Shown: positions 1-24,431 of the stretch, piece by piece
How positions within the stretch are numbered: position 1 is the stretch's first letter
How the letters are laid out: each line of letters starts with the position of its first letter
Origin: a virus
Taxonomy: Duplodnaviria; Heunggongvirae; Uroviricota; Caudoviricetes
Virus record (IMG/VR): IMGVR_UViG_2663762939_000013
Strand: one strand, 5' to 3'
Length of the DNA: 24,431 nucleotides
The notes under the pieces: model-generated
What the model saw: only the letters and a program-made list of their open reading frames with translations
What the model was told of the DNA's origin: nothing
The model's database searches: none
Translations under genes and position numbers: made by a program

Positions 1-1236
1 CTACGATAACCGCGCATTCAACATGGCTATCTGTTCGTCGTTCATGTCATCAATCCACATACCGTAAATTTCATACACCATCTGCGCAGTTTCATGCCCC
101 ATTTGGCTGGCTATAAATGCCGGGTTCGCTCCTGCCGTCAACAGCCAGCAGGCAAAAGTATGCCGCGTATGGTACGGATTACGGCGGCGAATACCAGCAC
201 GTTTTACTGCTGCATTCCACCTTGCCCCCAAACTGCTTACCGAGTAATAAGGTTTTTGTTTTCCGTTACACACCCTGGGCATGAAAACAAAATGCAGTTT
301 TTGCTTTTCGGTTCTGCCGTACTCCCGATGATAAAAGGTGATTTCGCTTTTGCGATGATGCCCGGTCAGTTTGTATTGCTCCTTCAGTGCTTCAAGAGCA
401 GGCTGCAGTAGTGTTACTGTTCGGATCCCGGCATTTGTTTTTGGGGGACCGAACATATCAAGTATCGTCAGGTTTCTTCTGACATTCACTATTCCCTTTT
501 CGAGATCCACATCCTCCCACGCCAGAGCTGCCAGTTCCCCGTGACGAAGTCCTGAGTAAACGGCAAATTTCCACAAGTTCTGGCTCTGTCCTTTTTCACT
601 TTCCATTAATGCATTGAATTCTGTTTTAGATAACGGATCAGGCTTTATTCTGTTTCGCTGTAATTTTTTTACTCCTTCAAATGGTTTGGTTGATATAAAT
701 CCCGACTGATACGCAAAACGCAACAGCGAACAGAGCAGGGCGATATAGTTATCAACTGTGCGCACGGTTCTTCCTTTTTTGTTGGATCTTGGATTATCCA
801 GGTAAAGCGTTTCTCCATGCAGCAGTTCATTCCGGTAGTTTAAGATATCGCTATAACGAATATGTGATATCGGGGTACTTTCACAAATTATTATTCTGAG
901 TGTTTTTAATTGTGATTTCGTTTTCTTCATTGTGTTTGTTGTTAACTCTGTCTCTTTAATTTTTGTCCAGATATCACAAAGCTCTCCGAACGTTTTTATG
1001 ACTCTCGTTGTCACCATTTTTGCCCCAGTGCTGGACTGGGGAAAACGTCTTAAATACTCAAATTCACCGGAGTTTATTTCATGAACTATCAGCGCTCTTA
1101 AATTTCCGGCCTTTTTAATATTACTGTTTGTAATCTCCCAGCCTTTTAATGTTTCCCGACATCGTTTTCCTCGAAACATGAACCAGATGCGAATGTATCT
1201 ACCTCTAATCTCGACACCTGTTGGTAATTTAGACAT
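1..1236 (-). CDS. intR: Phage integrase, tyrosine recombinase (Rac-type IntR), 411 aa
   Basis: Complete 411-aa ORF; C-terminal tyrosine-recombinase signature residues visible (LRHGEL, HTRHTFA, VYEIYG); N-terminus MSKLPTGVEIRGRYIRIWF matches my recollection of Rac IntR; start codon 1 nt from stop of the xis-like gene. Confidence 0.9.
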   Translation of the reverse strand: MSKLPTGVEIRGRYIRIWFMFRGKRCRETLKGWEITNSNIKKAGNLRALIVHEINSGEFEYLRRFPQSSTGAKMVTTRVIKTFGELCDIWTKIKETELTTNTMKKTKSQLKTLRIIICESTPISHIRYSDILNYRNELLHGETLYLDNPRSNKKGRTVRTVDNYIALLCSLLRFAYQSGFISTKPFEGVKKLQRNRIKPDPLSKTEFNALMESEKGQSQNLWKFAVYSGLRHGELAALAWEDVDLEKGIVNVRRNLTILDMFGPPKTNAGIRTVTLLQPALEALKEQYKLTGHHRKSEITFYHREYGRTEKQKLHFVFMPRVCNGKQKPYYSVSSLGARWNAAVKRAGIRRRNPYHTRHTFACWLLTAGANPAFIASQMGHETAQMVYEIYGMWIDDMNDEQIAMLNARLS

Positions 1237-1237
1237 A

Positions 1238-1453
1238 TCATGAGTCTTTGATAAACTGATTTATCTTTGGATAGTTGTACCAGATAATCCCTCGTTTGCT
1301 GTCTGGCTTACCTAAAGGAGATACTCGTTTGAAGTGGAAGCCCTCCACCCAACAGTTCTGGCGGTATGCTTCAATTTGTCTGGCCCCCAGACCAGTGCGA
1401 AGCATCAGGCCGTATTCAACCATCCACTCTTCATTAAAGATTACTTGTGCCAT
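1238..1453 (-). CDS. ydaQ: Excisionase-like small DNA-binding protein (YdaQ/XisR-like), 71 aa
   Basis: 71-aa ORF from ATG at 1453 ([15 protein letters not shown]...), immediately upstream of the integrase in the classical xis-int arrangement; alternative upstream TTG start at 1477. Confidence 0.8.
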
Positions 1454-1531
1454 CGCATCACCTCTGGCAGGCGCCAATGTTAGACTGAAATTGACGCCCG
1501 ATGTTGATTATTAATAATCAGCTATGAAGTT

Positions 1532-21406: not shown

Positions 21407-21714
21407 CCGCCCAGCGGTGGTTATCGGAGTTCGGGGGAGAAAGGGGGGAAAAGGCAAGATGGAAGCGAGAAAAACTCAGGTTGCCACCGATACCGGAACC
21501 AGAAATAGACCCGGTGCTTAAGGAATTGTTGTACGCCTATTCGGTAATATCCCGTGCCCGACGTTATGCTGGAATGACCGGGGTGCCTTTGCCTTTATCT
21601 CTGACAGAGATAAATGAATATTTAGCCACTCATCCGGTATTGATTGAGCGCGATGAGTTTGAAGCAGTGATCTTTGCACTGGATGACCAGTATTTTCAGG
21701 AGCAGTGTGTGTAG
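20945..21714 (+). CDS. Tail assembly chaperone frameshift fusion (gpGT analogue), predicted 256 aa via -1 ribosomal frameshift at 21394-21400
   Basis: Zero-frame ...ACG ATA AAA AAG CCA TAG; the -1 frame is open from 21370 to stop at 21712-21714; heptamer A AAA AAG in the correct register, AGGA 6 nt upstream. Confidence 0.6.
21394..21400 (+). other. Programmed -1 ribosomal frameshift slippery heptamer A_AAA_AAG
   Basis: Same heptamer as the E. coli dnaX frameshift site; located in the G/T overlap between major tail and tape measure genes. Confidence 0.6.
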
Positions 21715-21877
21715 TTGTTAATTACGTACACTCTGTTACAGAGATGTGATGGTGTCTTTAATTAAATCGATGATGCTCCTGGAGAAAAGCATTGCGTGGC
21801 CTCGTAATCGCTATATCTACTATTATGTCGCCTGAAACCCACTTCGGTGGGCTTTTTGTTGTCTGGAGTTTTAATAA

Positions 21878-23825
21878 ATGGCAGAGCAAACCTCGCGTCT
21901 CGCAATAATTATTGATAGCACTGGAGCAAAAAATAATGCTGACAATCTGACCTCCTCATTAGTCAAAATGACGCAGGCCGGGGAAACTGCTGCAAATAGC
22001 GCAGGGAAAGTGACTAAGGCAACAGAAGATGAGAAGAACGCGCTCGCAAAATTAAAAGCAGCTATTGATCCAGTTGGTGCCGCAATTGATACTGTCGGTC
22101 GACGCTATTCTGAATTAAAGAAATTTTTCGATAAAGGGCTTATTGATAAAGAAGAATATGAATTTCTTGTCCGTAAACTTAATGAAACCACAGAGGAATT
22201 GAGCGGGGTTGCGCAAGCGCAGAGAGAAGCCGAGAAGGCCGGAAAACTTGCTGCCGCCCAGCAGGAAGCGCAGACTCAGGCCTTTCAAAGAATGCTGGAC
22301 AAGATCGACCCTCTGGCTGCGGCGCTAAGAAATCTTGAACAACAGCAGGATGAACTTAATGCTGCGTTTGCATCCGGGAAAATAAATGGTTCTCAGTTTG
22401 AGAATTATAGCCGAAAAATACAGGAAACACGGCGAGAGCTTACCGGAGAGGCTCAGGCAGAGCGAGAAGCAGCAAAAGCGCATGATGAACAGGTTGCTGC
22501 TTTGCAACGTCTGATTGCTCAACTTGACCCTGTCGGAACTGCTTTTAATCGTCTGGTAGAACAACAGAAACAGCTCAATGAAGCAAAAGCTAAGGGGATG
22601 CTCTCTCCTGAAATGTATGAGGAACTTTCTGGAAAACTTCGTGCTATGCGGAGTGAGCTTGAGGTTACTCAATCTCAATTAAGCAAAACCGGAATGTCGG
22701 CAAAACAAACGGCTTTTGCTATGCGCATGTTGCCTGCACAAATGACGGATATTGTTGTTGGGTTGTCCACTGGTCAGTCGCCTTTTATGGTGTTAATGCA
22801 GCAGGGCGGCCAGCTAAAAGATATGTTCGGTGGGATTGGCCCGGCGATCAAAGGTGTTGGTTCTTATGTGCTGGGATTAATTAATCCTTTTACCCTGGCC
22901 GCAGCAGCCGTTGGCGTCTTAGGGCTGGCTTACTATAAAGGCTCTCAGGAGCAGGACGAATTTAATAAGTCTCTTATTCTTACCGGAAATCAGTTGGGGA
23001 CAACCAGCGGGCAATTGGCCGATATAGTTCAACGTGCCGGGAATGCGGCTGATTCGACAACTGGCGCTGCGGCGGCAGTATTAAACCAGCTTGTGCGTTC
23101 GGGAAAGGTAGCGAGCAGTTCGCTGGAGCAAGTGACGACAGCGATAGTAAAAACGAGCGAAGTAACAGGAATATCAACCGAACAACTGGTTAATGACTTC
23201 AATGAAATTGCAAAGGATCCTGTCAGTGCCATATCAAAACTTAATGATCAGTACCATTTTCTGACAATTGCGACTTATAACCAGATTAAGGCGCTACAGG
23301 ATGAAGGGAACCAGCAGGAGGCCGCCCGCATTGCGACAGAAGCATACTCATCCTCAATGATCCAGCGCACCAACCAGATTAAAGAAAATCTTGGTTATCT
23401 TGAGACTGCATGGAAAGCTGTCGCAGACTCCGCAAAATGGGCATGGGATTCCATGCTGGATATTGGCCGTGAGGCCTCCCTTGATCAAAAAATCTCAGAT
23501 GTTCTCCGTCAAATTGATGAAATAGAAAAAAATACCCGACCCGGAGTTTTCGGGTTAGGTGGCATTGGAGATGGCGGAGCTCAAAATAAAAGGCTGGCAC
23601 GATTAAAGCAGCAATTGGGCGTACTTCAAGCAGAAAAAATTGCTCAGGACGTACTAAATTCATCAATAAACGATTACAACAAGCGACAACAGGAAGGAAT
23701 TGAACTCAGACAGAGAGCAGATGCCTTTTCAAAACAATATCAGACCCGGGAGCAGCAGAGAGCTAGTGAACTTGCAAAACTGGAAAAACTAAAGAGTCAG
23801 TATTCAAAGGAAGAATATAATAATC
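21878..23825 (+). pseudogene. Tail tape measure protein gene, first about 649 codons, interrupted or truncated by an IS3-family element
   Basis: Long alpha-helical A/Q/E/K-rich N-terminus, a hydrophobic segment ([33 protein letters not shown]), position after the G/GT chaperones; reading frame runs into the IS terminal repeat at 23826. Confidence 0.8.
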
Positions 23826-24431
23826 TGAACCGCCCCGGGTTTCCTGGAGAGTGTTTTATCTGTGAACTCAGGCTGCCAGATCATCGTTTCCGATGGAAGC
23901 ATAATAAGCTTTTTCTGCTTCTGCCGGAGGAGTATGGCCCAGCCTTTCCAGCAATCGTCGATTGTTATACCAGTCCACCCACGTGAGTGTGGCCAGTTCC
24001 ACTTCTGCACGGTTTTTCCAGCTCTTACGGTGTATTACCTCCGCTTTGTAAAGACCATTGATGCTCTCAGCCATCGCGTTGTCATACGAGTCGCCTGTAC
24101 TTCCTGTTGATGCCAGTAATCCGGCTTCCTTAAGCCGCTGTGTGTAGGCCAGCGATACATACTGAGAACCTTTATCACTGTGATGGACCGTGCCGGACGG
24201 TCGACGGGCCCATAACGCCTGCTCCAGTGCATCCAGCACGAATGTCGTTTCCATGGACGATGAGACCCGCCACCCCACGATGTATCCGGCAAACACATCA
24301 ATGATGAACGCCACATAGACGAAGCCCCGCCATGTGCTGACGTAAGTAAAATCAGCCACCCACAGCTGGTCAGGTCGTTCTGCCACGAACTGACGGTTTA
24401 CGCGGTCGCCTGCGGCAACGGCTTTCCGGCT
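23826..24431 (-). mobile_element. IS3-family insertion sequence (IS629/IS1203/IS3411-like), partial; continues beyond window end
   Basis: Begins TGAACCGCCCCGGGTTTCCTGGAGAGTGTTTTATCTGTGAACTCAGGCTGCCAG, which I recall as the IS629-group terminal repeat; adjacent minus-strand ORF is the C-terminal part of an IS3-family OrfB transposase. Confidence 0.8.
23868..24431 (-). CDS. IS3-family transposase OrfB, C-terminal part (N-terminus outside window)
   Basis: ...[42 protein letters not shown]...[56 protein letters not shown]... contains the DDE integrase-core pattern of IS3-family transposases. Confidence 0.85.

Follow-up and report, generated by a model that had tools for sequence, protein, structure and literature searches.

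A Rac-family prophage of Escherichia coli at a probable intermediate stage of insertion sequence-associated decay

Architecture of the Locus

The window, i.e., the whole stretch of 24,431 nucleotides analyzed here (IMGVR_UViG_2663762939_000013), corresponds to KQ088931.1:130426-154856 of assembly GCA_001032735.1. The match is 100% and was established with two overlapping stretches of that scaffold, one identical to window 1-15387 (L013) and the other to 11878-24431 (L003). Directly beyond the integrase gene intR, the source scaffold carries ttcA (PF01171; L013/L028). The window covers the left two-thirds of a lambdoid prophage of the Rac family, whose integration site in E. coli is ttcA. It contains the left arm of Rac (intR to ydaE), a copy of insertion sequence (IS) 5, a remnant of trkG and a long block of packaging, head and tail genes that is interrupted by IS2 and IS629 (Table 1). 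Genes were identified with PHROGs and Pfam, and the small RNA (sRNA) RalA with Rfam.

The window was compared by megablast with 5,426 complete E. coli genomes. None of them has an identical arrangement; in 31, no less than 80% of the window is present, distributed across 30-38 kb. The best full-length relative is the prophage of E. coli TUM1226 (NZ_CP135719.1; coordinates below refer to the retrieved stretch L001). Its left gene order is intR-xisR-rcbA-ralR-recT-recE-racC-ydaE-kilR-sieB-...-repressor-cro-ydaT-ydaU-ydaV, followed on the right by ...-Q-like-holin-endolysin-Rz-trkG-ParB-like-TAGT-terS-terL-portal-MuF-scaffold-capsid-connectors-tube-ydaY-tape measure-tail tip. Window 1-6005 aligns with L001 3001-9005 (99.90%), 7201-17720 with 24343-34862 (100%) and 19052-23826 with 34858-39632 (99.96%). 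The breakpoints between these blocks coincide exactly with the ends of the IS elements.

These alignments bear out all the structural claims of an initial annotation that was made from the letters alone. It had proposed a Rac-like prophage, and the proximity of ttcA, the K-12-identical IntR and XisR, the 99.88% identity to K-12 Rac over 6005 bp and the mapping of the trkG, ynaK, ydaY and ynaA remnants agree with it. The claim that the packaging and head module is kept here, with only remnants left in K-12, holds as well: K-12 Rac lacks window 8159-21054, and PHROGs and Pfam confirm the genes. So do the splitting of a head-closure gene by IS2 (Hc1, PHROG 161, with a CAAGG duplication), the interruption of the tape-measure gene by an IS629-like element (after 1949 bp, the copy in a sister assembly being 99.5% identical to annotated IS629) and the intactness of recE, recT and ralR, which are open frames whose products are identical to those of K-12 (RecT, RalR) or differ at four positions (RecE). 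All three of the defects that it had counted under "at least three" are present. It had missed an amber codon at 20789, a 95-bp loss in the tape-measure gene, the truncation of trkG and the loss of the ydaE start.

Table 1. Features of the window (positions in the window; L001, retrieved stretch of the TUM1226 prophage).
Feature	Position	Strand	Evidence and remarks
intR, tyrosine integrase, 411 aa	1..1236	-	Pfam Arm-DNA-bind_2 and Phage_integrase; protein identical to K-12 IntR
xisR, excisionase, 71 aa	1238..1453	-	Pfam DUF1233; protein identical to K-12 XisR
rcbA (ydaC)	1532..1741	-	Pfam DUF1187; identical to K-12 protein; named rcbA in L001 and K-12
RalA antitoxin sRNA	1557..1735	+	Rfam RF02694, 225 bits (gathering score 170), full length 1-179
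ralR, type I toxin/restriction alleviation, 64 aa	1734..1928	-	Pfam Lar_restr_allev; identical to K-12 RalR
recT, 269 aa, intact	1985..2794	-	Pfam RecT; identical to K-12 RecT
recE, exonuclease VIII, 866 aa, intact	2787..5387	-	Pfam Exonuc_VIII and DUF3799
racC, 91 aa	5489..5764	-	PHROG 4778; identical to K-12 RacC
ydaE without ATG start	5839..6005	-	Native start (L001 9007-9009) replaced by IS5 end
IS5, 1195 bp	6006..7200	-	Ends GGAAGGTGCGAA... and ...TTCGCACCTTCC; transposase DDE_Tnp_1 and DUF772
trkG 3' remnant, last 188 codons (567 bp)	7201..7767	+	L001 24343-24909; Pfam TrkH profile positions 309-500 of 502
ParB_N/Srx-like, 263 aa	7905..8696	+	Pfam ParB_N, PHROG 620; K-12 ynaK is its 5' remnant
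TAGT-family glycosyltransferase, 310 aa	8689..9621	+	Pfam PF20691 (E=3.4e-35), PHROG 842
Terminase small subunit	9812..10906	+	PHROG 51, full profile coverage
Terminase large subunit	10887..12188	+	PHROGs 38319, 10250, 2; Pfam Terminase_6N/6C on identical product
Portal (DUF4055)	12191..13597	+	PHROG 145 (E=1.8e-165)
MuF-like minor head/head morphogenesis	13581..14693	+	PHROG 241; Pfam Phage_Mu_F
Scaffolding protein (DUF6651)	14798..15562	+	PHROGs 784, 206
Major capsid protein	15661..16800	+	PHROG 283 (E=1.6e-136)
Head-tail adaptor Ad1	17023..17418	+	PHROG 493
Hc1 head-closure gene, 5' part, 101 of 127 codons	17418..17720	+	Intact L001 homologue matches PHROG 161 "head closure Hc1"; cut at L001 34862
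IS2, 1331 bp	17721..19051	-	5-bp duplication CAAGG at 17716-17720 and 19052-19056
Hc1 gene, 3' part	19052..19137	+	L001 34858-34943
Tail completion/Neck1	19138..19518	+	PHROG 169
Tail terminator	19515..19907	+	PHROG 179; Pfam Phage_tail_terminator_5
Tail tube gene with amber	19934..20896	+	Pfam Phage_tube_2; stop at 20789-20791
ydaY, tail assembly chaperone	21047..21406	+	PHROG 313; K-12 match resumes at 21055
Tape-measure gene, 5' 1949 bp	21878..23826	+	L001 homologue (1077 aa) matches PHROG 24; cut at L001 39631/39632
IS629, right-end 605 bp	23827..24431	-	Window ends at scaffold gap

The Deletion Anchored at IS5

The element between ydaE and trkG has the length of IS5 (1195 bp), GGAAGGTGCGAA terminal repeats, a DDE_Tnp_1 transposase and at least 95% identity to reference copies; it is 99.7% identical to the annotated copy of TUM1226 and 99.3-99.6% identical to many other annotated copies. 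It is flanked by TTAG on the left and ATAG on the right, matching L001 9005 and 24343, two sites that lie 15,337 bp apart in L001, and the 4-bp target duplication of a simple IS5 insertion is absent at these flanks. Since the flanks come from distant sites and carry no duplication, they point to an associated deletion and not to a different element. The deleted segment, L001 9006-24342 (15.3 kb), encompasses kilR, sieB, ydaF, ydaG, the repressor gene, cro, ydaT, the replication genes ydaU and ydaV, KilA-N, hok, a DUF1133 Q-like antiterminator, holin, endolysin, Rz and the 5' 891 bp (297 codons) of trkG. The immunity and replication block was indeed lost at IS5, as the initial annotation had it; the extent of the deletion was understated, since kilR, sieB, the Q-like gene, the lysis genes and the trkG codons went with it.

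The RacR/YdaS/YdaT immunity module that is absent from the window sits in this deleted segment. Its absence is a secondary loss with defined breakpoints, so that membership of the Rac family by descent rests on the identity of the flanks rather than on the module. RacR is essential in K-12 because it represses the toxin genes kilR and ydaS/ydaT and the lysis genes (PMC5700373, PMC5700377). A viable cell could therefore lose racR only if kilR, ydaS/ydaT and the lysis genes disappeared at the same time.

The ydaE::IS5 junction recurs, 100% identical, in a complete genome (L014, CP164275.1) and at a contig end (L017). For the other junction, the call of a 169-aa trkG remnant is found in the source scaffold, at one further similar place and in one record on a contig of more than 1 Mb, which we take to be GCA_964050845.1. 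A trkG-remnant open reading frame (ORF) of 193 aa with a TTG start is not on record in the public collection, and one of 186 aa was discarded as a junction marker because it is non-specific and derives from frameshifted trkG calls in many assemblies. Strain ES9 (H48) was also rejected as a carrier of the same junction: its IS5 lies at another position of trkG, in a different prophage at bio/ybhC.

TUM1226 itself has an IS5 in the same orientation, within the block that is deleted in the window. A common origin of the two copies is unlikely, given four mismatches in 1.2 kb against none in the adjacent 10.5 kb and a CTAA duplication of its own in TUM1226. Deletions that end near the window's breakpoint occur elsewhere. 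In L009 (SRR23956615, 9781-10001), recT and trkG are fused some 100 bp upstream of the junction seen in the window; the fusion point is a different one and free of IS sequence, so that it was set aside as an independent event. In L032 (GCA_900499225.1, 1-260), the end of an IS1 meets trkG at window 7238, which is 37 bp away from the junction with IS5. The immunity-to-lysis block seems to have been lost repeatedly across assemblies.

A second stage is seen in the complete genome L014. This sister genome matches window 1-7200 at 100%, including the ydaE::IS5 junction and the whole of IS5. The right end of its IS5 is joined to window 22295, inside the tape-measure gene, after which the same junction of the tape-measure gene with IS629 follows. 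L014 can therefore be read as the structure of the window after a further deletion of 15.1 kb, in which all of the head module and what was left of trkG disappeared. TTAG stands at the left junction in both cases, whereas the right junctions differ (ATAG in the window, CTGG in L014) and do not fit YTAR, the target preference of IS5. This argues for a single insertion of IS5 at the kilR/ydaE boundary, after which one-sided deletions proceeded one after another from the right end of the element. The two nested stages argue for the right end of IS5 as a fixed anchor of successive rightward deletions. A second IS5, with a CAAG duplication, was observed in the 3' tape-measure fragment of L014 (locus 1-9300).

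Lesions in the Virion Genes

IS2 is at least 99% identical to the annotated "IS3-like element IS2" and encodes products with HTH_Tnp_1 and rve domains. The CAAGG duplication identifies it as a simple insertion, which replaces the last 26 of the 127 codons of Hc1. An IS2 in strain 025542-1 (H60) was considered as the same event and rejected; it is present in three pieces within the tube gene, near the window's site but not at it.

IS629, an element of the IS3 family, interrupts the tape-measure gene. In the source scaffold, the Ns begin directly after the last base of the window, inside the element. The full element is present at the same site in a sister assembly (L004), where it is 1310 bp long and 99.5% identical to annotated IS629; IS629 at this site is 96.2% identical to a Sakai copy. 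In both the source scaffold and L004, the tape-measure gene resumes 95 bp further on past the element. The AATC at both flanks of IS629 corresponds to two native AATC sites that are 99 bp apart in the uninterrupted gene, 95 bp having been lost. Since these 95 bp are missing, the loss of IS629 alone would leave a frameshift.

The third lesion is a single C to T change at 20789 relative to L001, which turns Gln286 of the tail tube protein into a stop codon and shortens the protein from 320 to 285 aa.

Further IS elements were observed in the same or related prophages. Strain WP7-S18-ESBL-09 (L002) carries the same prophage with two independent insertions of IS629 (10303-11612 and 20192-21501), one in the MuF gene and the other in the tape-measure gene, 65 bp from the window's site and flanked by a clean duplication of GAT. 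IS629 may have a hot spot in this part of the tape-measure gene. Downstream of the window, lom and the side tail fibre gene are separated by an insertion of about 700 bp that encodes a Y1 (IS200-family) transposase (L004 21030-21731; L003 from 21615), a fourth type of IS in one prophage.

Retained Packaging and Head Genes

The head genes are all full-length and without internal stops, and they are identical to those of TUM1226, with no mismatch over 10.5 kb. The block from terS to the capsid gene is not rare: at a coverage of at least 80%, it occurs in 715 of the 5,426 genomes (13%), and 569 matching records reach at least 99% identity. Phage databases already contain this block in the form of prophage sequences. 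Records named vB_EcoS-... and labeled "phage", which have the same head module, were rejected as evidence for an isolated virion of this type, as these phages were located in the genomes of clinical isolates (bioRxiv 10.1101/2022.06.29.498070).

Just upstream of terS (window 7905-9621), the ParB_N/Srx-like gene overlaps the gene of a TET-associated glycosyltransferase (TAGT; annotated "GREB1-related"). ParB-like genes are known to adjoin phage DNA glycosyltransferases (bioRxiv 10.1101/2023.12.21.572611). The pair may constitute a DNA-glycosylation or DNA-modification module in a lambdoid prophage.

The Left Arm and Its Expression

The left arm is close to that of K-12 throughout. Six of the seven proteins compared (ydaE was outside this comparison) are identical to their K-12 counterparts, and RecE has four amino-acid differences and no internal stop. 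The frame of ydaE is open into IS5 without ATG, GTG or TTG; in the NCBI annotation, an ATT start is used to give 59 aa. In the intergenic region of racC and recE (window 5459-5483) lies a perfect palindrome with a 10-bp stem (ATAGCCTGCG...CGCAGGCTAT), which was flagged as terminator-like on the plus strand only.

A scan of 5300-7300 returned no promoter-like site, and terminator-like sites on the plus strand only. The transposase gene of IS5 (6152-7168) is on the same strand as racC-recE-recT and points towards them, and the scan found no terminator-like site on that strand between the transposase gene and recE. In K-12, the leftward early genes are de-repressed upon titration of RacR (PMC11014345). 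This response places their promoter in the block that is deleted here. RecET would then be severed from the native, RacR-controlled upstream region and is probably silent or weakly expressed.

K-12 Rac still excises (PMC4632033), and since IntR and XisR are the K-12 proteins, excision is expected of the window element too, which can probably still leave the chromosome. The left attachment site (attL) is just outside the window, and attR is beyond the retrieved region, which ends near lom. The functions that could remain active are excision by IntR/XisR, the RalR/RalA toxin-antitoxin pair, RcbA and RecET.

Recurrence and Order of the Lesions

The 285-aa allele of the tube protein is indexed in 95 blocks of the public collection, and in 77 of these the longest contig is 2-5 kb. 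Six contigs that were fetched (L022-L027) consist of exactly the stretch from the end of IS2 to the end of IS629 and, with the exception of a single mismatch in L026, show 100% identity across both junctions. A contig of 4.6 Mb (L019) is 99.99% identical over window 9934-24431. The recurrence of the IS2 and IS629 junctions in independent assemblies indicates that the insertions are real and mark a widespread clonal lineage.

Hc1 is uninterrupted in two further sequences with the amber allele (L020 and L021), the first of which encodes the 1077-aa tape-measure protein as well. As the amber allele stands beside intact Hc1 and tape-measure genes in L020, the nonsense mutation is older than IS2 and IS629. 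The RecE allele of the window was also found with an intact kilR-to-replication block (L015, L016). The lesions can be arranged, on this comparison, into a decay series in which the nonsense mutation was followed by IS2 and IS629, and beside which stand the nested IS5-anchored deletions.

Interpretation and Alternatives

We consider it very probable that the window is a Rac-lineage prophage at ttcA at an intermediate stage of decay, derived from a full-length ancestor like those of TUM1226 and MS 69-1, and that K-12 Rac is a differently deleted derivative. A full-length Rac-type prophage would have acquired the amber codon in the tail-tube gene, and IS2 would have entered Hc1 and IS629 the tape-measure gene, the latter with the loss of 95 bp. 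IS5 at the kilR/ydaE boundary would have given rise to the one-sided deletion of 15.3 kb, with loss of the ydaE start, and in the sister genome L014 a further rightward deletion would have proceeded from the right end of IS5.

What a functional lambdoid phage possesses is largely missing here: the repressor and cro, replication genes, late antiterminator and lysis genes are deleted, and damage affects the genes for Hc1, the tube protein and the tape measure. Counting the lost start of ydaE, the element carries at least five kinds of damage. With no switch, replication, late activation or lysis, and with three virion genes damaged, the production of phage by this element on its own would be impossible. 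The initial annotation had treated excision together with production of infectious particles as the refutation of this, thereby conflating the two; excision would leave the defectiveness standing. Some points weigh against so complete an account. The tube protein lacks 35 residues at its C-terminus and Hc1 lacks 26, losses whose effect is inferred. The exact IS5-trkG junction was read in the source scaffold only. The deletions next to IS5 could have arisen through intramolecular transposition, recombination between IS5 copies (including transient second copies) or illegitimate recombination.

The initial annotation had also presented the element as a snapshot of domestication. In its strict form, this would mean that the left arm has been kept by selection, with IS5 driving ydaE-racC-recE-recT in a natural sbcA-like strain with active RecET, which we regard as unlikely. 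The IS5 transposase gene does read towards racC-recE-recT with no terminator-like site on that strand before recE, the left-arm ORFs are all intact and six of the seven proteins are those of K-12, and the left arm is unchanged in L014 after the second deletion; moreover, the lethal genes (kilR, ydaS/ydaT and lysis) are gone along with racR, which their control makes essential in K-12 (PMC5700373, PMC5700377). However, no promoter-like site was found in 5300-7300, and recent shared ancestry would account just as well for a nearly identical left arm. The head genes, which are not under selection, have no mismatch over their 10.5 kb either, so that conservation of the left arm says nothing about selection. 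No strong outward promoter is known for IS5; an enhancer-like activation by IS5 was reportedly described by Schnetz and Rak in 1992. Expression of recET driven by IS5 is therefore possible but unlikely. It is likewise improbable that IS5 plays both roles at once, anchoring successive rightward deletions and also replacing the RacR-controlled promoter through read-through or enhancement of racC-recE-recT-ralR-rcbA, to give an sbcA-like lineage with constitutive RecET. trkG, the best-known and classic useful cargo gene of Rac, was destroyed by the same event. With trkG destroyed, recET cut from its native control and a sister genome that lacks the head module, domestication in the sense of selective retention was an over-reading, and neutral or ongoing decay fits at least as well.

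Two other explanations concern the reality and the activity of the element as assembled. Repeated IS copies might have been collapsed or wrongly joined during assembly, with the IS5-bounded deletion or the IS positions as the result. In favor of this are the gap that the source scaffold has within IS629, the multiple copies in which IS5 occurs and the lack of a target duplication at its flanks. Yet the ydaE::IS5 junction is 100% identical in the complete genome L014 and at the contig end of L017, the IS2 and IS629 junctions recur in six independent contigs and the 285-aa tube allele in 95 blocks, L019 is 99.99% identical over window 9934-24431, and the trkG-remnant call was also made on a contig of more than 1 Mb. 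Such an artefact is barely credible overall; these recurrences exclude it for the IS2, IS629 and ydaE::IS5 junctions and make it unlikely for the IS5-trkG junction. Alternatively, the element might be mobilizable, excising and being packaged or donating head genes with the help of a co-resident or superinfecting lambdoid phage. Its IntR/XisR are those of the excision-proficient K-12 Rac (PMC4632033), its TerS, TerL, portal, MuF, scaffold and major capsid genes match the full-length relative at 100%, and defective prophages are known to donate DNA to temperate phages by recombination (PMC3945230). However, the replication genes, the origin region and the late-gene activator are all gone, and three damaged structural genes (Hc1, tube and tape measure) would need compatible complementation; mobilization with a helper is very improbable.

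An intermediate stage of decay in the Rac lineage is an ordinary and already known kind of object: many genomes carry full-length Rac-type prophages, this particular allele is a variant at the strain level and IS-mediated erosion of prophages is textbook material (PMC6379469). The modest value of the window lies in showing the architecture from which K-12 Rac was derived, and in a base-pair-resolved decay series that could be used to mark the lineage or for teaching. For lambdoid phages that enter the cell, the undamaged head genes may be a source of sequence for recombination. Should recET prove to be driven by IS5, nature would here have produced a counterpart to the sbcA mutants, with which the RecE pathway was once discovered.

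Comparison with Known Prophages

K-12 Rac (NC_000913.3 1411899-1434958) is integrated at the same position next to ttcA, and both elements are defective. Its intR-xisR-rcbA-ralR/RalA-recT-recE-racC-ydaE is collinear with the window (99.88% over 6005 bp). Apart from window 1-6005, K-12 Rac matches only 7201-8158 (3' trkG and ynaK, 99.9%; K-12 Rac 16674-17631) and 21055-22812 (ydaY and ynaA, 98.6%; K-12 Rac 17630-19389). It lacks the 12.9 kb of window 8159-21054, from most of the ParB-like gene through the tail tube, and its ynaK, ydaY and ynaA are what is left of the ParB-like, chaperone and tape-measure genes that the window shows. Conversely, K-12 Rac keeps kilR-sieB-racR-ydaSTUVW-rzpR and the whole of trkG, all of which the window has lost. 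Its IS5 (IS5Y, in lomR; L005 19598-20795 against window 6004-7200) is only 91.3% identical to that of the window.

Sp10 of O157 Sakai and CP-933R of EDL933 also lie at ttcA. They have been described as Rac-like, retain their replication machinery and can infect other strains (PMC4632033). The comparison with O157 that the initial annotation had called for gives a more limited result than that with K-12, where collinear remnants were found: identity to the window is 98.6% over the leftmost 6 kb, from int to ydaE, but the late region of Sp10 has no trkG and a different terminase, portal and prohead protease, and no DNA similarity to window 7201-23826 was found within the 50 kb of Sp10 examined. 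A review lists IS-associated indels in 12 prophages of EDL933 and describes K-12 Rac as incomplete relative to EDL933 (PMC6379469). In the IS-driven decay of O157 and Shigella prophages (IS629, IS2, IS1 and IS5), insertions and IS-adjacent deletions likewise inactivate lambdoid genes; the window differs in lineage and sites and in nothing qualitative.

The closest counterparts are the full-length Rac-type prophages of TUM1226, MS 69-1, GN02461 and KN13-4, which are 99.9-100% identical to the window in every shared segment and have the same gene order from intR to the tape-measure gene. Unlike the window, they keep the 14-kb kilR-to-trkG block, an uninterrupted Hc1, a tube protein of 320 aa and a tape-measure protein of 1077 aa. 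Theirs is evidently the ancestral architecture.

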